Below, piece after piece: positions 1 through 24,900 of a stretch of DNA of 64,000 nucleotides (positions are counted from its first letter, which is position 1; the number at the start of each line of letters is the position of its first letter). The notes beneath the pieces are model-generated. The model saw only the letters and a list, made by a program, of their open reading frames with translations. It had not been told where the DNA came from and ran no database searches. The position numbers and the translations under genes are program-made. Source of the DNA: Felis catus (taxonomy: Eukaryota); the NCBI RefSeq assembly GCF_018350175.1, contig NC_058368.1, forward strand, positions 88,848,001 through 88,912,000, given 5' to 3'.

Positions 1-3000
1 CAGATTTAAGAAGCAGGCTGGCACTTGTTCTGACCCACATTTTGTCTCCATGCTGCTGGCTCGGTCACATGGGACAAGTTTTCTGTGTGCAGATTGGCTC
101 TGGGAGCCCTTGGGGCTAACAGGAAACACTGTGGCCCTCTCCCACTACTCCATCACCTGGGTTTTGGTGGGCTATTCCCCTGACGTTCAGATTTAAGAAG
201 TAGGCTGGCACGTGTCCTGACCCATGTTTCTTCTTGGTTCTCGTGCCTTGGTCACGTTGGCCAAGTTTTCTTTGTATAGATTGACTCTGGGTGCCCTTGG
301 GGCTAACAGGAACACTAGAGCTTCTACCTAGTGAAGAGCATGGCCCTCTGTCACTACTCCATCACCTGTGTTTTGGACGTCTTTTCCCCTGCTGATCAGA
401 TTTAAGAAGGAGGCTGACACCTGTCCTTACCTACATTTCTTCTTACTGCTGGTGACTGGGTCACGTGGGGAAAGTTTTCTTTGTGCAGATTGGTTCTGGG
501 TGCCCTTGTAGCTAACAGGAACACTAGAGCTTCTACCTGCGGGAACACTGTGGCCCCTGTCCCACTACTCCATCACCTGGATTTTTGATGGCTGGCCCCC
601 TGCTTCTCAGACTAAGGGGGAGCCTGGCATGTGTCCTGACACTCGTTTCTTTTCCATGCTGGTGTTTCCGTCAGGTGTGGCAAGTGTTCTTTGTGCAGAT
701 TAGCTCTGGGTGCCCTTGGGGCTAACAAGAACACTAGAGGTTTTACCTGCGTGAAGAGCATGGCTCTCTCCCACTACTCCATCACCTGGGTTTTGTACAT
801 CTTGCCCCCTGCCCATCAGATTTAAGAAGCAGGCTGGCACGTGTTCTGAACCAAGTTTCTTCTTTGTGCTGGTGGCTGGGTCACGTAGGGAAAGTTTTCT
901 TTGTGCAGACTGTCTCTGGGAGCCCTTGGGGCTGACAGAAAAACTAGAGCTTCTACCTGCGGGAACACTGTGGCCCTCTCCCACTACTCCATCACCTGGG
1001 TTTTGAATGGCTGGTCCCCTGATGGTCAGATTTAAGAAGCAAGCTGGTACGTGTCCTGACATACGTTTCTTCTCAGTTCTTGTGGCTTGGTCACGTGGGC
1101 CAAATTTTCTTTGTGCAGATTTGCTCTGGGTGCCCTTGAGTCTAACAGGAATACTAGAGACGCCACATGAGGGCACAGGGCGACCCTCTTCCACTACTCC
1201 ATCACCTGGATTTTTGATGGCTGGCCCCCTGTGGCTCAGACTTAAGGGGGAGCTTGGCATGTGTCCTGACACTCCTATCTGATGGCTCGGTAATGTGGGC
1301 CAAGTTTTCTTCATTCATATTGGCTGTGGGTGCCCTTGGGGCTAGCAGGAACACTAGAGCTTCTCCTTGAACAAAGAGCGTGGCCCTCTCCCACTACTCC
1401 ATCTCCTGGGTTTTGGACGGCTGGCCCTCTGCCGATCAGATTTAAGAAGCAGGCTGGCACGTGTCCTGACCCATGTTTCTTCTCGGATCTCGTGGCTCAG
1501 TCACATGGGCCAAGTTTTCTTTGTCTAGATTGGCTCTGGGTGCCCTTGAGGCTAACAGGAATACTAGAGACTCCACGTGAGGAATACTGGAGACTCCAGG
1601 CTGGCACAGGGCGACCCTCTCTAACTACTCCATCACCTGGATTTTTGATGGCTGGCCCCCTGCTGCTCAGACTTAAGGGGAAGCCTGGCATGTATCCTGA
1701 CACCCCTATTGTCTCCATGCTGATGGCTCAGTCACATGGGGCAAGTTTTCTTCGTGCAGATTGGCTCTGGGTTCCCTTGAGGCTACAGGAACACTAGAGC
1801 TTCTCCCTGAATGAAAAGCATGGCCCTCTCCTACTACTCCATGAGCTGGGGTTTGGACGGCTCGCCCCCTGGCGATCTGATTTAAGAAGGAGGCTGATAC
1901 CTGTCCTGACCCACGTTTCTTCTTAGTGCTGGTGACTCAGTACCTGGGGAAAGTTTTCTTTGTGCACATTGGTTCTGGGTGCCCTTGCGGCTAACAGGAA
2001 CACCAGCGCTTCTACTTGCATGAAGAAGGTGGCCCTCTCCCACTACTCCATCACCTGGGTTTTGAACGGCTGGCCCTCTGCCGATCAGATATAAGAAGCA
2101 GACTGGCCTGAGTCCTGACCCAAGGTTCTGCTTTGTTCCGTTGGCCCGGTCACGTGGGGCAAGTTTTCTTTGTGCACATTTTCTCTAGGTACCCTTGTGG
2201 CAAACAGGAACACTAGAGCTTCTACCTGCGTGAACAACGTGGCCCTCACCCTCTACTCCATTACCTGGGTTTTGGTCGGCTGGCCCTCTGCTGATCAGAT
2301 TTAAGAAGCAGGCTGGCACATGTCCTGACCCACGTTTCGTCTCCATGCTTGTGGCTCGGTCATATGGGACAAGTTTTCTTCATGTACCATTGTCTCTGAG
2401 TGCCCTTGGGGCTAACAGGAAAACTAGAGCTTCTACCTGGGTGAAGAGCATGGCCCTCTCCCTCTACTCCATCACCTGGGTTTTTGACAGCTAGCCCCCT
2501 GCCCATCAGATTTAAGATGCAGGCTGGTACCTGTCCTGACCCACATTTCGTCTCTGTGCTTGTGGCTCGGTCCTGTGGGACAAGTTTTCTTTGTGCAGTT
2601 TGGCTCTGGTAGCCCTTGTGGCTAACAGGAAAACTAGAGCTTCTACCTGCAGGAACACTGTGGCCCTCTCCCACTTCTCCATCACCTGGGTTTTGGACTG
2701 CTGGTTCCCTGACAATCAATTTAAGAAGCAGGCTGGCATGTGTCCTGACCCATGTTTCTTCTAGGTTCTTGTGGCTCGGTCATGTGGGCCAAGTTTGCTT
2801 TGTGCAGTTTTGCTGTGGGTGCCCTTGAGGCAAACGGGAATACTGGAGACTCCACCTGAAGAAACAGGGTGGCCCTCTCCCACTACTCTATTACCTGGAT
2901 TTTTGATTGCTGGCCCCCTGCTGCTCAGACTTAAGGGGGAGCCTGGCATGTGACCTGACACTCGTTTGTTCTCCGTGCTGGTGGCTCGGTCACGTTGGGC

Positions 3001-5610
3001 AAGTTTTTTTTCGTGCAGATTGTGTCTGGGTGCCCTTGGGGCTAACAAGAACACTAGGTCTTCTCCTGCATGAAGAGCATGGCTCTCTCTCACTACTCCA
3101 TCACCTGCGTTTTGGACGTCTTGCCCCCTGCTGATCAGATTTAAGAAGGAGGCTGACACCTGTCCTTACCTACGTTTCTTCTTAGTGCTGGTGACTCTGT
3201 CATGAGGGGAAAGTTTTCTTTGTGCAGATTGGTTCTGGGTGCCCTTGCAGCTAACAGAAATACTAGAGCTTCTACCTGCGGGAACACTGTGGCCCTCTCC
3301 CACTACTCCATCACCTGGGTTTTGGACGGCTGGCCCTCTGCCGATGAGATTTAAGAAGCAGTCTGGCTCGTGTCTTGACCACATTTCATCTCCGTGCTGG
3401 TGGCTCAGTCACGTTGCACAAGTTTTCTTCATGCAGATTGTCTCTGGGTGCCCTTGGGGCTACCTAGAACTTCTACCTGGGCGAAGAGTGTGGCCTTCTC
3501 ACACTACTCCATCACCTGGGTTTTGGACAGCTAGCACATCAGATTTAAGAAGGATGCTGACACCTGTCCTGACCCACGTTTCTTCTTGGTGCTGGTGGCT
3601 TGGTCACATGAGGCAAGGTTTCTTTGTGCAAATTAGTTCTAGGTGCCCTTGGGGCTAACAGGAACACTAGCACTTCTACCTGAGGGAACACTGTGGCCCT
3701 CTCCCACTACTCAATCACGTGGGTTTTGGACTGCTTGCCCTCTGCTGATCAGATTTAAGCAGCAGGCTGGCACGTGTCCTGACCCACGTTTCTTCTTGGT
3801 TCTCGTGGCTCAGTCACGTGGGCCAATTTTCTTTGTGCAGATTGGATCTAGGTGCCCTTGAGGCTAACAGAAATACTAGAGATTCCACATGAGGGTACAG
3901 GGAGGACTTTTCCCACTACTCCATCACCTGGATTTTTGATCGCTGGTCCCCTGCTCCTCAGACTTAAGGGGGAGCCTGGCATATGTCCTGACCCACCTTC
4001 ATCTCTGTGCTGGTGGCTCGGTCATGTGGTGCAAGTTTTCTCTGTGCAGATTGTCTCTGGGAGCACTTGGGGCTAACAGGGAAGCTAGAGCTTCTACCTG
4101 TGGATACACTGTGGCCCTCTGCCACTACTCCATTACCTGGATATTTGATTGCTGGCCCCTGCTGCTCAGAATTAAGGGGGAGCCTGGCATGTGTCCTGAC
4201 CCATGTTTCATCTCTGTGCTGGTTGCCCGGTCTTGTGGGGAAAGTTTTCTTCGTGCAGATGGCTCTGGGTGCCCTTGGGGCTAACAGGAACACTAGAGCT
4301 TCTACCTGCATGAAGAGCATGACCCTCTCCCACTAGTCCATCACCTGTGTCTTTGATGGCTCTCCCCCTCCAATCAGATTTAAGGGGCAGGCTGGCACAT
4401 GTCCTGATCCATGTTTTGCCTCCGTGCTGGTGGCTCAGTCACGTGGGGCAAGTTTTCTTTGTGCAGATTGGCTCTGGGTGCCCTTGCGGCTCACAGGAAC
4501 ACTAGAGATTCTACCTGAGTGAAGAGTGTGGCCCTCTCCCTCTACTCCATCACCTGGGTTTTGGACAGCTAGCTTCCTGCCCATCAGATTTAAGAAGAAG
4601 GCTGGCACGTGTCCTGACCTACATTTTGTCTCCGTGCTGGTGGCTCGGTCACGTGGTGCAAGTTTTCTTTGTGCAGATTGGCTCTGGGAGCACTTGGGGC
4701 TAACAGGAAAACTAGGGCTTCTACCTGTGGGAACACTGGCCCTCCTCCACTACTCCATCACCTGGGTTTTGGACGGCTGGTCCCCTTATGATCAGATTTA
4801 AGAAGCAGCTGGTACGTGTCCTGACCCACGTTCCTTCCTGGTTCTGGTGGCTCGGTCACATGGGTCAATTTTCTTTGTGCAGATTGTCTCTGGGTGCACT
4901 TGAGGCTAACAGGAATACTAGAGAATCCACGTGAGGGTACAGGGCGGCCCTCTCCCACTACTCCATCACCTGGATTTTTGATGGCGGCCCCCTGCTGCTC
5001 AGACTTAAGGGGGAGCCTGGCTTGTGTCCTGACACTCGTTTCTTCTCCATGCTGGTGTCTCAGTCATGTGGGGCAAGTTTTCTTTCTGTAGTTGAGTGCC
5101 AGGTGTGCTTACAGGTTGGAGGAGCAGCTGAGTCTCCACCTGTGTGAACAGAATGGCCCTCTCCCACTACTCCATCACTTGGGTTTTTTACTGCTGGCCC
5201 CTTGCCGATCAGATTTTAGGAGGCTGGCTCGTGTGCTGACATATGTTTCTTCTCCATGCTGGTGGGTTGGTCATGTGGGGCAAGTGTTCTTTGTGAACAT
5301 GAGTACTGGGTGTGCTTACAGGTATGAGAAGTAGCTGAGTATCCACCCGAGGGAATGGTGTGGCCCTTTTCCACCACTCCATCACCTGGGTTTTTGATGG
5401 TTGGCCCCTTGCTCCTCAGATTAAGGGGGAGGCTGCCTAGTCTCTTGACTTAGTCCTCTTCTCCATGGTGGCATCTCCTCTACATGAGGAAAGTTTTCTC
5501 TGTCGGGATGAGCCCCCGGGGCACTTATGGGTAGTGGGGACTGTGGAGTCTCCACCTGTGGGAACAGTGCAACCCTGCCCCACTGCTCCATTCCCTGGGT
5601 TTTGGCAGGT
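1..5610. repeat. Tandem array of ~210-bp units (at least 26 units plus the gene-embedded founder unit), truncated by the left window edge
   Basis: Anchor CAGA(T/C)TTAAG, or a close variant, recurs at ~1,188,397,608,817,1027,1237,1437,1668,1877,2086,2296,2507,2717,2926,3136,3346,3540,3750,3959,4167,4375,4585,4793,5000,5210,5417 (modal spacing 209-210). Each unit shares CCCACTACTCCATCACCTGG, AAGTTTTCTTTGTGCAGATT and GCTAACAGGAA. Confidence 0.97.
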
Positions 5611-7007
5611 GGTGCCTGGATTCAAGGTGGAACTAGCATTTTGTCCAAATACTGGGACGATATTTGTTCCTCCTACACCAGCAGCCCTGCCATCACCACA
5701 GCGATTCCAGGTTGTCTGACCTAAAGTTGGAGCAGAAATGGTTCTTGGTACCCCGTTCAGTCCTGCCTCAAGGTTGAATGCTCTGGATGCCTGTGAATGA
5801 ATGGGGCCTGGGATGTACACACCACTGCCCATAGGGGCTGCAGTTCCGAAAACACATGTTGGCCTGAAGTACTGTCAGCTAATGGTGAGCCACTATCCCT
5901 GGTGCTGGGCATCCCCGTGGCAACTCCAAAGCCTGTTGTGGTAGATACACCAATGGGCAGAATGCCTGGCTTGTCACTGGAAGCCAGCTGGATACTAAGA
6001 GTGGTAATGGATGCAGAACCTGCAAACCTGCCTTCACTGTGTTGTCTCTGGGTAGCTGGGCTACAAGAGCAGTTGGGTCCATAGCTTGTGTTGAGGCTAC
6101 TGGTGTTCCTAACAGGTGAGAATTGTCAGGCTGCTGCCCATTATGATGCCCAGTTGTGGGCTGAGAGGTGATTCCTGGGTCAGAGTGGTTGAAAACTGAG
6201 GTCTGTCCAATGGATGACTTTTTAGGTAAATGGATAGAGTCATGGGCCACCACAGTGCTGCCACAGGGTGGTGTGTTATCAGAACCAGAAAACACCATGT
6301 TAAGTGGGAATGGTTGTCCCTGGACTCAGGGGAGGAACAGAAGATGGAAGCTTGAGATGGTGATGTAGTGTCCATGGCTTCACTGTTACAGGCTGAGTTG
6401 CAGTTTGCAGAGGGCTTGCCTACTGGAGTGGAGGTGACTCTAGAATCCATAGGAGCAAGCTAGTGGAAACAGCAACACTGGCAAGAAGGGCTGTCTTCTG
6501 ATCTCTAGGTGGGCTGGTGAAAACTGGAGACTTTGCAGGGCACCTCTGCTTCAAACTGCAATGGCCCTGGGGAAATGAAGGAGATCCCATTCCGGATTCT
6601 TGGGGAGATCTGAAAATAACAGCCTTTGAAAGGAGAGTGGTGTCCATGTTGACGACACCAGGACCTGACGTAAGCTTGGAGGTAGATGTAGATGCATTGG
6701 CTGCGATGGTAGAAGCAACTGTCTTAGAACTGATGGGCTGGACAATTGAAACAGGGCTATGTGTGGAAGGATTTGGAAGAGGGGTGGGTAGGATAGGAGG
6801 GGGGGAATCTACACACATAGGCACTGGGGATTCTGTGTCGCAGGAGGGTGGCTGTAAGGAGGGAGGTGTTAGGAAGTGTGGTGATGTCAGAAATAAGATA
6901 TGTTACAGCAGTGACTGGCTGAAGCGGGCCTTCTTTCCTCACAGGAATTCCACAAATGAGATTGGAACTAAGATGAGGAACAAAACCAGCAGGAACAGCT
7001 GGAGAAG

Positions 7008-7228
7008 TTTTTTTTTTTTAAGCTATAATAACCTCTTTATTATTTTTTTTCAATATATGAAATTTATTGTCAAATTGGTTTCCATACAACACCCAGTGCT
7101 CATCCCAAAAGGTGCCCTCCTCAATACCCATCACCCACCCTCCCCTCCCTCCCACCCTCATCAACCTTCAGTTTGTTCTCAGTTTTTAAGAGTCTCTTAT
7201 GCTTTGGCTCTCCCCCACTCTAACGTCT
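7008..7228 (-). mobile_element. 5'-truncated L1 (L1_Fc-like 3' UTR) with double poly(A) and a short 3' transduction, inserted in NPAP1L
   Basis: 7051-7228 is the reverse complement of the L1 3' UTR seen at ~38378-38555. T-runs lie at 7008-7019 and 7043-7050. Flanking direct repeats are TGGAGAAGTTTT (7000-7011) and TGGAGAAGATTT (7230-7241). Confidence 0.9.
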
Positions 7229-8490
7229 GTGGAGAAGATTTAGAAACTATCTGTGCTGTCTCCTGACCAATGTTTGGTGTTAAAGATGGAGGGACAGAGG
7301 GAATTGGGGACTTGGCAGATTGGTCAGCCAAGTCATCAGTAGGAATAGGGACTTGCAAAGTGTGACTCCCCAAAAGCAGAGAGTTAGCAGTCTCTGAGGC
7401 AAGTAGGGATAAAGAAGTGGCAGGCTGAGTGTCTGAGCAGTCTCCTTTGATCTCTCTTTTGTCTTCCAAGATCTTATTCCTCTGACATTTGAATTCTTGA
7501 AGGTGTCCAGGTTTTTGTCAATAGCTATGCAAGGAAACTTAGGAAGTGGGGGCAACTGGCCCTGGCCCCACAACTGGGGCGGTGGCAGTAGGCAAGAATG
7601 TGACATGGATATTTTCCATTTGCAGGGCCTACTGCTGGCAGATACAGGGGAAAAAGAGCTCCTTGATGAGATGCCTGAAGGCTCATTAGCCTGTATCTCC
7701 TTCCTGGATAGGTATGATGTGTCCCCAACAGGCTGATGGTTTTCACCCAACACTTCCTTTGTTGATGTCTCCTGCAGTAAGGGGCAGCATGGGGTTGGGT
7801 CGGAGAGCACTGCTGCATCTGTATCAGGCACGACATTTCCGGCTGGGCCATGTGAGGAGGTGACTACGCAGCCTTCAGGGCAGCAGTTCATCAGAGACTT
7901 CTGGGTGTTCTCCCTCAAACCGTCTTCTGGAGGATTAGGATGGAGGTCCAAAGGTGCAGGGCTGCACTGCAAGGAACTGAGAAGTCTACCAGTCTCCAGG
8001 GGACATTTAAATGGTATGTCCCCAACGTTATGGGGGACCCTGTTCCCACCATTCTGCCTTTTGGTCTCTACAAGATCCTCCATCTTTTTTCGGGGATCTT
8101 CCTAGACCTTCTCTTCCACCCCAGATGGGCACAAAAGTGGGAGGTGCCTGGATGGTACTGGCTCCACAGCCTCCTCTACCTTCTCAGATAGTGAATGTGG
8201 GAGAGTGAATTTGCGCCCCATAGGAGGGATCCTTTTGGCTCTGGAGTGTCCAAACATCATGGAATTATGAGCAGACAGCACAAGTTTTTTCGGAGAGTTA
8301 CTCCAGTTCACCAAGGGAAGGATCCCCAGAGGGGTACATGAGGCCTGCCGGATGGGGTACTGCCTCTTTGGCTGGATGTATAAACTAGCTGGTAAAGGCC
8401 CACGATCCCAGTGGAATAGCCCGCGCCCAAGGCCCAGGGCAAGTGAAGGAGCAGCGGGGTGGTCCTGGCAAGGTGGTGGAACAGCATCAC

Positions 8491-8514
8491 GGGGGGGGGG
8501 GGGGGGGGGGGGGG
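8491..8514. repeat. G24 homopolymer (poly-Pro on the minus strand)
   Basis: 24 consecutive G, read directly. Confidence 0.95.
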
Positions 8515-8739
8515 TGGAGGCAGGGGCCGAACACGGCCAGGCAGGGACGTGGCGGGGGTGGGAAATGAAACTTACAAAGCAGGTTGCCCATATTGGGCTG
8601 GTTGTGCACCAAACCATTGCAAGATGGGAGTAAAAAAGCTGGAGAGCACCTCCTGAGCTTCTGACTCCTCTGGCAGTCAAGCAAGCACTGAGCCTGAGTG
8701 ACTGAGCCAGGCCCTTGTGACCCCTCCCCGGAACATGGC

Positions 8740-8870
8740 GCAAACAGGGGCGTGCATGCGCAGCATGGCAAGTGACTACAGCAAAGGGCAAAGGGTGAGG
8801 CCCCAAAGCCCCGCCCCTTAGCCTCCCACGCCTGGGACTTCCCTCTGGCCACCGGTGGCTGGTATATAGA
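8740..8870 (-). promoter_or_regulatory. Putative promoter elements upstream of the NPAP1L ATG
   Basis: GC box CCCCGCCCC at ~8809-8817, NRF1-like GTGCATGCGCA at ~8752-8762 and TATATA at ~8863-8868, within a locally GC/CpG-rich stretch. Confidence 0.3.
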
Positions 8871-10079
8871 TTTCCGGCTGCCTGTGGCAGTTGTATACAA
8901 GCAGCAGGGCCACTGCGTGGGGACTGTGGGGGAGTGAGGTGGTAATTAATTGGCTTCTGCAGTAATTAGCAACTGTAAGGCAAACACTTTGGAGCTGTTG
9001 TAATTGTCTGCATTAGGAATACACCTCTTGTACAGATCTAATTAGCAATTTAAATAGTTCAGAAATTATATGCCCCTTGCCTTTACACTCCCTGAAGTAC
9101 TGTTCATTAATGGGGGAAAAAATTCCTAGTAAATGTCATTTGCATTGTCTTGTGTTAAGGGCTCTACATCAAAGCCTCCTTTGCTGCCTCATACTGAATA
9201 ATTCTGAGCTGTGGCTTGTGGACCAACACAACTGTAATTAGGGGATGATGCCTTTGTAAACATGTGGTACAAAATCTGACAGGAGTTTGTTTTGCTGTGA
9301 GGTATCTCCTTCATGATTTAAGCTACAAATAATAATAAGAAGAACTATAATAGAGGTAGAGCTAAAATAAGTAAATAAAGATTGAAACAGATATTGACTC
9401 TTTGTGGGCCATTGAAGTGATGGTTGAAAAGTTACATTTGAAAGACTTTTCACAAAGTTTTAGCTCCTCATGTGATTTTAGCAATGAAGTTGATATAGAT
9501 ATGAATGAGTATGACTGGGGGAATGGTCAAAATTATGATCTAAGGATTATGTTGATGGTAAAGTAGCTTTTGATGATATTTGTGGTATATAGTGAGAATT
9601 ACATGTAATACGTCAAGTCCACAATGAAAGCCTAACATACAACTCAGGTGCACTCTATTTCAGAAATGCCTCAGTCAGAACTGACATCCCTGATTACCAA
9701 AATTTTGATTTATGCCATTCACATAGTTAAGTATATAGGTGGGTGTCTTCTGTTGTGGATCACAATTTCCAATGTAAAAACATCAAGCAATAAAATGTCT
9801 GGTGGAGACTCTGGAACTTCAGAAGTTTTTAACTCAGTTAAGAATTCTTAAAAAATTAAAACAATAATTTGGGTAAAAAGAAAAAGAGAAATTTGTTATA
9901 TTGTGGATATTAAATCTGGGAGAGATGGTCAAACACAACAGAAGACCAAATCAATATTCAAACTGATATCAACTGGCTGAGATAAAAAATTAAGACACCA
10001 AAGATGAAACAAGCTTGAACTTGTTTCAAAATGCAAGATGTGAATAAGATCTGAGGATCTTTTTAAAAATATATGATCC

Positions 10080-10285
10080 TAGTAAAAAAAATCTTAGTGT
10101 GACATACCGGATGGAAGACAATGAAGTTTTGAGGTGGATTAATAGAAATATAGTATCCTTAAGAAAGGTGAATAATAGTCCCACTGAATTTTGCATTGCC
10201 TACATTGTACACTACGATTCCACTTGGATGCTGTATTTTAAAATGGACACAAACTAATTGGAAGATGTCAAAGAAGGTTAAGCAG
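10080..10285 (+). mobile_element. Ancient L3/CR1 LINE fragment
   Basis: ATTAATAGAAATATAGTATCC..ATAGTCCCACTG..TTTTAAAATGGACACAAACT resembles the L3/CR1 consensus as recalled. Confidence 0.45.
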
Positions 10286-10287
10286 TT

Positions 10288-10501
10288 GGGGTGCCTGGGT
10301 GGCTCAGTAAGTTAAGCATCTGACTCTTGATTTTGGCTCAGGTCATGATCTCACAGTTTGTGAGTTCGAGCCCTGCACTGGGCTCTACACTGACAGTGCA
10401 GAGCCTGCTTGGGATTCTCTCTCCCCCCTCTCTCTCTGCCCTACTTGCCACCCCACTTGCTCTCTCTTTCTAAATAAATAAATAAGCAAAAAAAAAAAAA
10501 A
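10288..10501 (+). mobile_element. CAN-SINE (SINEC)
   Basis: GGGGTGCCTGGGTGGCTCAG head, GTTCGAGCCC B box, (CT)n region, AATAAA/A tail and an imperfect TSD GGTTAA(G/A)CAG. Confidence 0.93.
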
Positions 10502-21900: not shown

Positions 21901-24900
21901 TGTTTTTTTTTTTTTTTTGGTTTCGATAGCATTGATTTCTGCTCTAATCTTTATTATCTCCTGTCTTCTGCTGGTTTTTTTTTAATATTTATTTATCTTT
22001 GAGAGAGAGACAGAGAGACAGAGAAAGAGCATGAGAGGGTAGGGGCAGAGAGAGAGAGAGAATGGGAAACACAGAGTCTGAATCAGGCTCCAGGCTCCGA
22101 GCTGTCAGCACAGAGCCTGACATGGGGCTTGAACTCACAAACTGTGAGATCATGACCTGAGCCGAAGTCAGACGCTCAACTGATTGAGCCACCCAGGCAC
22201 CCTGGTTTGGGGTTTTGTTTGCTGTCATTTTTCCAGCTCTTTAAGGTGTATATTTGAGACCTTTCTTCCTTGTTTAGGAAGGCCTGGATTGCTATATACT
22301 TCCCTCTTATGACTGCCTTTTCTGCATCCCAGAGGTTTTGGGCTGTGGTGTTGTCATTTGCATTGGTTTGCATGTACTTTTCAATTTCCTCTTTAACTTC
22401 TTGGTTATTCTCCTTCATTCTTTAGTAGGATGTTCTTTTGTCTCCAAGGATTTGTTATCTTTCCAAATTTTTTGTTATGGTTGATTTTGAGTTTCACAGC
22501 GTTGTGGTCTGAAAATATGCACAGTATGATCTCAATCTTTTTGTACTTGTTGAGGGCTGATTTGTGTCCCAGTATGTGATCTATTCTGGAGAACGTTCCA
22601 TGTGCACTGGAGAAGAATGTATATTCTTCTGCTTTAGGATGAAATGTTCTGAATATATCTGTTAAGTCCATCTGGTCCAATGTGCCATTCAAAGCCATTG
22701 TTTCCTTCTTGTTTTTCTGTTTAGATGACCTGTCTATTGCTGTGGGTGGGGTGCTGAAGTCCCCTACTATTATATTATTATCAATGAGTTCTTTATGTTT
22801 GTTATTAATTGATTTCTATATTTGGGTGCTTTCACATTTGGAGCATAAATGTTTACAATTGTTAGGTCTTCTTGGTGGATAGACCCCTTATTCTTCACCT
22901 CTTGTTACAGTCTTTATTTTAAAGTCTAGATTGTCTATATATGTATGGCTACTCCAGCTTTCTTTTGTCGACCATTAGCATGATAGATGGTTCTTCATCC
23001 ACATACTTTCAATCTAAAGGTGTCTTTAGGTCTAAAGTGGGTCTCTTGTAAACAGCATATAGATGGATCTTGTTTTCTTATTCATTTGTTATCTTATGTC
23101 TTTTGATTGGAGCATTTAGTCCATTGACATTTAGAGTGAGAACTGAAAGATATGAATTTATTGCCATTATGTTGCTTGTAGAGTTGGAGTTTCTGGTGTT
23201 CTCTGGTCCTTTCTAGTCTTTGTTGCTTTTGGTATTTTTTTTTCATCTTTTCTCCCCTCAGAGAGTCCCCCCTTAAAATTTCTGGTCACAAACTCCTTTA
23301 ATTTTTGTTTGGGGAATTTTAATCTCTTATTCTATTTTGAATGACAGCCTTGCTGGATACAGACTTCTTGGCTGCATATTTTTTCTGATTCAGCACATTG
23401 AATATGTCCTGCCACTCCTTTCTGGTCTGCCACGTTTCTGTGGATAAGTTTGCTGCAAACCTGATCTGTCTTCCCTTGTAGGTTAAGGATTGTTTTTCCC
23501 TTGCTGCTTTCATGATTCTTTCCTTGCCTGAGTATTTTATGAATTTGACTATGATATGCCTTGTTGATGATCAGTTTTTGTTGAATCTAATGGGAGTCCT
23601 CTGTGCTTCCTGGATTTTGATATCTGTGTCTTTCCCCAGGTTATGAACGTTTTCTGCTATGATTTGCTGACATAACCCTTCTATCCCTTTTTCTCTCTCT
23701 TCTCTCTTCATTTTTCTCTTCACCTATGATTCTGATGTTGTTCATTTTAATGAGTCACTGATTTCTCTAATTCTTAAATTGTGTTCTTTTGCCTTAGTCT
23801 CCCTCTTTTTTCTGCTTCATTATTCTCCATAAGTTTGTCCTCTGTACCACTGATTTACTGCTCTGCCTCATCCATACTTCCTGTGTGGCATCGATTTGGG
23901 ATTGCAGCTTGGTTATAGCATGTTTCATTTTATCCTGACTAGCTTTTACTACTTTTGTCTCCGCAGAGAGAGATTCTAATCTCTTCTTGACCCCAGCTAG
24001 TATTCTTATTATCATGATTCTAAATTCTGGTTCAGACATATTGCTTGTGTCTGTGTTGATTAAGTTCCTGGATGTCATTTCTTTCTGCTCTTTTCTGGGG
24101 GGTTAACTCCTTAATTGTCATCATTTTGAAGGAAGAAAAGGAATTAATAAAGTTAAAAAAATTGAAATTAAAAAATTAAAAACAACACACACACAGAAGA
24201 ATCAAATAAATGATGCTAGATCCTAGGTGTGTTTTGGTCTGGTTGTTGAAAGGAGCTTGATAGATTAAGAGACAAAAAACAAAACAAAACAGGAAAACGT
24301 TTGAAAATTTGAAAAAATGAATACAATGAAGTAAAATAAAACGAAATGATGGAAGTAAAATAGAATTTGAAAAAAAATTACAAAAAGGTAAAAATTATAT
24401 TAAAAAAATTAAAGAAAAAATATTTTTAATAAAAATTAAAAATAAAAATATTTTTTTCTCTTTCTGTATTCAAGAAAAAGAGAAGAAAATTGTATAGATC
24501 GACCAGCAAACAGACTGAAATATGGTTGAAATTACATCGTTTTCCCCTAGAAGTCAACCTATGAAGCAATTTGTAGTCCATAAACTAAGCAGGTAGAGAG
24601 ATTTGTGGTTTTCCTGAAGAGCGAGGTTGGACCAGTTGGGAGAGGCTTAGTGTAGTGGCTCCATTCTCCACTAGATGGTGCTGCTTAACTTACTGGGGTG
24701 GATTGTTGTGGCACTTGTAGGTGTGTATGTGCATGCACCCAAGGGATGAAAATGGCATCACCTAGCTACTCAGTCTCTAGCATAGGAACTCTATTCTCCC
24801 ATGTCAGCAATCATGCACCTGTCCCTTTTCCCTGGCTTCCATCCAGTCTCTGCTTTTACATTGTCCATGACCAAGCCGTCAGGTGGCCAGGCAGCACCTC

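Follow-up and report, generated by a model that had tools for sequence, protein, structure and literature searches.

A 47-unit tandem array, very probably amplified from an internal module of NPAP1L, in a pseudogenised segmental duplicate of that gene in the cat genome

Coding minisatellites are variable-number tandem repeats located inside exons, such as those of the mucins and the zinc-finger array of PRDM9, and macrosatellites such as D4Z4/DUX4 and DXZ4 carry gene sequence; DXZ4 has reportedly been studied in cats. Here we describe a tandem array found at the beginning of a 64,000-nucleotide stretch of the cat (Felis catus) genome, contig C1 (G000:C1:88848001-88912000), which we call the window and within which positions are counted from the first letter, negative values lying to the left of its start. 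It is very probable that the array, 47 units over 9.8 kb, represents an amplified internal 70-codon module of NPAP1L that resides in a pseudogenised segmental duplicate of this gene. The genome searched comprises 2.43 Gb in 71 contigs, and 10 kb of leftward neighbouring sequence was added to the window.

The NPAP1L gene is a POM121-derived retrogene adjoining TLE1, and a cat scaffold carries both, according to Neumann et al. (2014, Genome Biol Evol 6:344, PMC3942032). The same work reports positive selection on primate NPAP1, and the word 'repeat' occurs 0 times in its text. The NPAP1-family genes evolve fast and their function is poorly known. A search of a literature library returned no description of the module. 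The gene family and the kinds of element concerned are known; the module, its copy-number dynamics and the 47-unit relic appear to be undescribed. The first-pass annotation of this DNA, made from the sequence alone, knew of no description of such a repeat; this stands for the module, which is absent from the literature found, but not for the proteins, which are present in public databases under automatic names.

The array and its units

In the window, Tandem Repeats Finder reports one array with a period of 210, 25.3 copies and 76% matches at 125-5422. When one unit (800-1009, minus strand) is used as a query, 27 nhmmer matches fully tile the minus strand from 5604 down to 1, and the match at 5404-5604 covers unit positions 5-206 with 52 bits and an E-value of 1.4e-16. 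The first-pass annotation regarded this last segment as the end of an NPAP1L-like gene from whose coding sequence the array was derived. With such a score, the "gene end" is itself a diverged unit and no chance match, which bears out the derivation and confirms that the repeat observation is real and far above chance. The peptides quoted in support of that derivation are indeed present in the minus-strand open reading frames (ORFs) at 5437-5874 and 700-1314, the latter being open over 204 codons as had been noticed, and the quoted DNA is found at about 5575-5601.

The array had been taken to be confined to the window. When the left-flank sequence is included, it consists of 47 minus-strand units that extend over 9,799 bp from window -4190 to 5608, and its left end (G000:C1:88843810) lies 4.2 kb outside the window. 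The modal unit length proposed earlier, 210 bp, holds for 17 of the 47 units and is followed by 209 bp (11/47). With 47 units of about 210 bp, the locus is a head-to-tail array of units of at least 100 bp that runs across kilobases. The portion inside the window comprises the first unit, u00, at 5400..5608 (-) and the internal units u01 to u26 at 1..5399 (-), as delimited by Tandem Repeats Finder, the nhmmer tiling and the unit table, with u26 straddling the window start. The mean pairwise identity of units is 79% (range 61-93%) and even the best pair reaches just 93%: all copies in the array are old.

There are at least 56 unit matches genome-wide, and among the matches listed the module is found at four genomic places, which are the array on C1, two short arrays 29.8 kb apart on contig C31 (in the genes C31A and C31B) and one on contig C2. 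When the 61 units of the four loci are placed in a maximum-likelihood tree built on 210 columns, the first units of the four loci cluster together and so do the truncated last units, each with 100/100 support. Across loci the first and last units keep 89-93% identity, compared with 61-72% to internal units; for u00, the values are 92% to the first units of C31 and C2 and 62-70% to internal units. All four loci have the first and the truncated last unit as positional orthologs, u00 being that of the C31 and C2 first units; what varies is the number of internal units, from 45 in C1 to 4 in each C31 gene and 0 in C2.

The internal units of the C1 array have a higher-order arrangement. Unit u01 of C31 groups with eight C1 units (u03, u08, u13, u19, u21, u33, u38 and u43; support 100/97) that are mostly five units apart. 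Mean identity between units over the whole array peaks at a lag of five (0.810, a value reached in 0 of 5000 permutations), and within u29-u45 the lag-5 identity is 0.841. The longest self-alignments, 1.8-3.2 kb long and 80-83% identical, occur at offsets of 4.9, 5.0, 9.9, 20.1, 25.1, 30.0 and 35.0 units. The lag-5 peak together with these offsets indicates that the array was built mainly from a five-unit block of about 1,050 bp. A later block duplication, with offsets of 12-14 units, is seen in the middle of the array.

The broken gene copy and its intact relatives

Upstream of the array, on the same strand, lies the head of an NPAP1L-like gene (5609..8591 (-), from an ATG at 8591-8589 to the first unit), which was delimited by alignment to C31A and by a Pfam POM121 match and is 91.5% identical to C31A at the DNA level. 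The first-pass annotation had reported an upstream NPAP1L ORF here, and what is present is a string of fragments: the minus-strand ORFs at 5437-8965 are in differing frames and no single ORF spans them. Relative to C31A, nine events that shift the frame (a 230-bp insertion and eight deletions, each of 1 or 5 bp) and three in-frame deletions are found from the ATG through the first unit. Codon-guided alignment adds two nonsense codons in the same interval, a CAA-to-TAG change at codon 166 (8102..8104 (-), Gln in C31A) and a CAG-to-TAG change at codon 985 (5437..5439 (-), Gln in the intact paralogs). The second of these had been mistaken for the gene's own stop codon. Beyond the array the gene tail is recognisable down to the native TAA at about window -4.67 kb and carries C1-specific indels of +1, +1 and +9. 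The POM121 domain (PF15229) is matched by the translation of 7280-8101 (-) with 47.1 bits against a cut-off of 27, and the other seven translations submitted gave no Pfam match.

The 230-bp insertion (7008..7237 (-)) appears as a gap in the alignment with the C31 and C2 paralogs, from which it is absent; it has a T-run on the plus strand and is bordered on both sides by the direct repeat GGAGAAG. Read depth over it is hundreds to thousands of times that of neighbouring bins, and 91-93% of the reads that cover it extend into unlike sequence. It is a very high-copy interspersed repeat, or retroposon.

The resemblance between the loci does not end with the coding region. The upstream flank (8592..10459 (-), blastn) is common with C31 to about 8942 and with C2 to about 10459. 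On the 3' side the homology of C1 to C31 runs well past the coding region to the end of the fetched sequence, and about 3.9 kb or more of downstream flank could be aligned among C1, C2 and C31A with 5.5-5.8% substitutions. Since kilobases of flanking sequence are shared, the C1 and C2 copies arose by DNA-level duplication and are not new retrocopies. The window copy thus has both the disabling mutations relative to an intact paralog and the homology into non-coding flanks that characterise an unprocessed pseudogene: it is a pseudogenised segmental duplicate.

The intact counterparts are on C31, where two stop-to-stop ORFs of 1517 and 1520 codons (1490 and 1493 aa when counted from MGNLLCKF) span the six units without leaving the gene frame; some 190 unique codons then follow before a TAA. 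These uninterrupted, intronless ORFs supply the paralogs with a continuous NPAP1L-plus-repeat frame that the first-pass annotation had hoped to find, and the frame is the one it had noted. They also show that its proposed origin of the repeat in the C-terminal end or 3' region of the gene was mistaken, as the module is internal. A protein search of the genome returned the same four loci, of which just the two on C31 are stop-free, although weak matches may be missed by such a search. The two genes make up a tandem duplication that spans about 10 kb at 98.3% identity. They are located at 21.74-21.78 Mb and are bracketed by TLE_N-domain exons at 21.10-21.14 Mb and 22.85-22.88 Mb. Because NPAP1L lies beside TLE1 in the published account (PMC3942032), the C31 pair is the syntenic NPAP1L locus. 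TLE_N exons flank the C31 genes only; the window locus on C1 has no such neighbours and is therefore a dispersed paralog rather than the NPAP1L ortholog.

A search with the C31A protein returned 23 homologs, and those that are named are mostly 'nuclear pore-associated protein 1-like' proteins of carnivores and ruminants; the tiger protein is 91% identical, and pinniped proteins have E-values from 1e-220 to 1e-262. Judging by these similarities, the module very probably belongs to NPAP1L, a POM121-derived, intronless gene family associated with the nuclear pore. C31A (C31:21741679-21746148) is identical at 1421 of 1421 aligned residues to the Felis catus protein UniRef100_A0ABI7WHW5, which marks the genome as that of the domestic cat or of an extremely close relative. 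The database protein lacks exactly one unit (69 aa). This gap is either an intron made by annotation or a five-unit allele. A second protein, from ENA, is 98.8% identical and is also without one unit, with different breakpoints.

The C2 copy has a first unit and a truncated last unit with no internal units between them (L015 5135-5520, C2:60558135-60558520), which is either a collapsed array or the ancestral two-unit state as in the sea lion. Its head contains 5 frameshifts and 3 stops, none of them common with C1, and one in-frame 3-bp deletion common to both; its tail has its own -1 and +16 indels, the tail indels being private to each locus. As no disabling lesion is common to C1 and C2, the two copies died independently.

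A hidden Markov model (HMM) of the module was made from the twelve C31 units of the cat and applied to 32 proteins (30 stored ones and the two C31 translations). The highest count, 12 units, belongs to an unnamed 1907-aa UniParc/MetaClust protein. Each C31 gene has 6, and the Felis catus UniRef entry and the 98.8%-identical ENA protein have 5 apiece. The monk seal protein and each of two hyaena proteins have 3, and the sea lion protein and the tiger model have 2, the latter stopping within the second unit; among these proteins the module was undetected in canids or ruminants at the HMM threshold. The copy number of the module changes quickly among carnivores. A tree of 26 units taken from five proteins places the cat's internal units in one clade (99/98) and those of the 1907-aa protein in another (98/96); the second and third units of the monk seal pair with each other (98/94), and the first units of cat and hyaena pair (99/96). 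Such a topology suggests either independent expansion in several lineages or concerted evolution that would have erased a shared history. In the intact genes the module is basic and rich in Gly, Ser and Pro, and disorder is predicted for it: in an AlphaFold2 model of the C31A repeat region, based on a shallow alignment of 14 rows, the mean predicted local distance difference test score is 38.3, no residue reaches 70 and there is no secondary structure.

Coding state, timing and present role

The consensus of u01-u45 is 210 bp long and stop-free in the gene frame, as the first-pass annotation would have had it, while the other two sense frames contain 6 and 3 stops per unit. The individual C1 units have lost this frame. 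Indel events with a length indivisible by three account for 30 of 35 in C1 against 0 of 7 in C31; a frameshift is present in 25 of 47 C1 units and one or more in-frame stops in 28 of 47 (42 stops in all), compared with none of the 12 C31 units for either type of lesion, so that 10 of 47 units in C1 and 12 of 12 in C31 are free of both. The array is not coding now, and the frame is open through six units in the C31 genes; indel length modulo three, which had been suggested as a check of a coding extension, speaks against present coding in C1. The C31 units keep their frame as a coding repeat would, the corresponding proteins being database predictions. The array has a CpG observed/expected ratio of 0.26, compared with 0.51 for the C31 repeats, and we infer that the low value reflects decay under germline methylation.

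The scenario that we favour starts from a block of about five internal units, which would have been amplified about ninefold through unequal exchange near the time of paralog separation. Growth of the array would have continued once the frame was already interrupted, and neutral decay would have followed, leaving no present function. The late part of this history is recorded in the sister pairs created by the mid-array duplication of 12-14 units: u11 and u24 share a TAA at codon 54, which arose by a non-CpG C-to-A change, and the pairs u18/u32 and u19/u33 share a TGA at codon 44. As these sister pairs share in-frame stops, the youngest block duplication copied units that were already interrupted, and we conclude that at least the last expansion step was post-mortem.

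Several observations weigh against this account of the array, or weaken the tests of it. Frameshifting events are private to one unit in 24 of 30 cases, with three frameshift position classes each found in two non-sister units; taken together with the open consensus, this means that most of the amplification used frame-intact units and could date to a still-coding gene. Units of the same type differ by about 10% at non-CpG sites compared with about 5% for the paralog flanks, which at face value dates the amplification before the split of the loci. The ratio of nonsynonymous to synonymous changes (dN/dS), another check suggested in the first-pass annotation, is near 1 as expected of an array that does not code (0.93 in the gene frame, pooled over eleven C1 sister pairs, versus 0.80 and 0.83 in control frames), but it does not discriminate, since it is 1.09 for the module in the intact C31A/C31B pair as well (on 28 changes only), where the head gives 0.38. 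The Pfam POM121 domain was undetected in the intact C31A protein at E<=0.1, and the check for RNA covered only ~1-2% of two runs. In the sea lion homolog POM121 scores 81.3 bits, and the match in C31A may have been missed through HMMER filtering or through divergence at the core motif of the family. The C31A region concerned (L011 2949-3671 (-)) is 84% similar to the matching window fragment.

The first two of these observations are what would be expected if the five-unit block had been amplified in a working paralog or in a common ancestor, with the death of the gene and the contraction of the C31 and C2 copies coming later, a possibility that we regard as unlikely. It would imply that an ancestor of felids had an NPAP1L-type protein about 4,400 aa long and containing some 45 internal modules, to which we likewise assign a low probability, and the wider proposition of a hotspot, in which the 70-aa module was amplified repeatedly and lineage by lineage in Carnivora and in felids went to an extreme, with five-module super-repeats, while still translated and before the gene died, is equally doubtful. 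If it were true, the array would be the fossil of a giant, fast-evolving nucleoporin-like protein and not a post-mortem satellite. An open unit consensus, frameshifts nearly all private to single units and a same-type unit divergence about twice that of the flanks are in keeping with such a past. So is the finding that C1 and C2 have no disabling lesion in common in about 3.6 kb of non-repeat coding sequence, which implies that their ancestor was intact, and the 1907-aa homolog with its 12 units in one ORF demonstrates that large coding expansions occur in the family. Against it stand the in-frame stops shared by three sister pairs of the youngest block duplication, and the C31 units u02-u04, which form a clade of their own and do not pair with C1 unit types. 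The dating by divergence is weakened, too: in the young C31A/C31B pair the internal units diverge 2 to 3.5 times faster than their surroundings (units are 95.7-98.1% identical, the duplicated block 98.3% and the head 99.2%), and because units evolve faster than flanks, divergence does not settle the order of amplification and paralog split. A word-based protein search with the repeat region alone returned 2 proteins and an all-against-all representative search 5 at E<=0.001, one of them spurious, and neither contained a form with more than 12 units among proteins of 0.55-1.75 times the query length, those above 2419 aa being left out. A 2100-aa match with 9 stretches (P0026) was rejected as spurious, its sequence reading as that of an unrelated repeat protein.

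That the array is active today as DNA or RNA, whether as a macrosatellite that plays a part in chromatin or by giving rise to a long non-coding or antisense transcript, seems to us very improbable, even though its 9.8 kb have long been retained, one antisense frame of the unit consensus is stop-free and a 190-aa ORF derived from ENA, 93% identical to window 703-1314 (-), indicates the presence of the array in another source. Decay is alike in the sense and antisense frames (42 versus 49 stops over the array), the CpG depletion given above is that of decaying sequence, and units that are just 79% alike on average leave no sign of homogenisation. In the raw reads of X24 and X21, one an oligo-dT bulk and the other a single-cell RNA run, of which about 2/100 and 1/100 were read (tissue not stated), RNA depth is zero in 28 of 30 bins, and the only reads, in bins 6878-7475, lie over the interspersed repeat and none in the array; there is thus no evidence of transcription, with a sampling too shallow to exclude expression. 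Runs X7 and X1, which consist of contigs, cover the array and the pseudogene evenly and at a low level, as genomic DNA would. The array contains no match to a CTCF-type consensus at <=1 mismatch. A still smaller probability is given to an assembly artefact in which short repeats of the C31 type were mis-assembled into a long array. Tandem arrays are error-prone in assembly and one X1 contig joins 4343 back to 3538, but units that are 61-93% identical are each unique at read length, independent runs supply contigs that agree with pieces along the array to within 0-5 differences, and the units, flanks and head of C1 differ by 5-10% from the C31 copies. We therefore return to the amplified NPAP1L module in a dead duplicate, and consider the relic array most likely functionless today.

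Several minor features were noticed along the way. An ORF of 484 codons runs antisense to the units on the plus strand, at window about -2814 to -1363 (L009 7186-8637); it could be counted in favour of a present role, and was judged to be a chance run and not a real gene, antisense stops being as frequent as sense ones. A DXZ4-like reading of the array was dropped after a scan of the 64 kb with the CTCF-type consensus gave 1 match, at 24668 and outside the array, against 0.66 expected. In the X1 contig that joins window 4343 back to 3538, 30 other letters separate the two points; the joint may reflect a structural variant of the array carried by another individual, or a chimeric contig. The sole Rfam match in the window is a tRNA at 22114-22198 (-), with 33 bits against a gathering score of 29, and at a guess is probably the head of a tRNA-derived short interspersed element.

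Comparison with known systems

The closest named homologs of the genes described here are the NPAP1L/NPAP1/UPF0607 retrogenes, with which, as described in the published account (PMC3942032), they share the POM121 match, the intron-free ORFs on C31 and the TLE neighbours. The tandem pair on C31 also has a counterpart in that account, in which neighbouring duplicates are found in dog and elephant. The 70-aa tandem module and its copy-number changes are absent from the account, and the window copy differs from these retrogenes in being off the syntenic locus, a dispersed DNA-level duplicate, and dead. Its shared parental flanks, independent frameshifts, nonsense codons and retroposon insertion are those of other unprocessed pseudogenes, and the roughly tenfold amplification of an internal tandem module in a dead or dying copy is unusual among them. 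From the point of view of annotation, the 'ORF plus repeat' of the window should be labelled a pseudogene, and the 69-aa gap of the database cat protein deserves a check.

One genome thus shows the module both as a variable-number coding repeat, in intact NPAP1L, and as the seed of a 10-kb non-coding array. For the family, a disordered basic module present in 2 to 12 copies among carnivores provides a concrete trait for functional study. As in coding minisatellites, the C31 genes have a unit length divisible by three and indels that all preserve the frame, and six units are found against five in two near-identical proteins with differing breakpoints; unlike them, the repeat has a long unit of 210 bp whose copies are old and diverged (79-86% identical). 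The C1 array resembles gene-carrying macrosatellites in its kilobase scale, gene-derived units and higher-order structure. It differs from them in that its unit is a 0.21-kb coding fragment and not a whole gene of several kilobases, and in that neither a CTCF-type motif nor homogenisation nor, in shallow RNA data, expression was seen. We class the array as a relic minisatellite derived from a gene of a known family, and not as a new kind of system.

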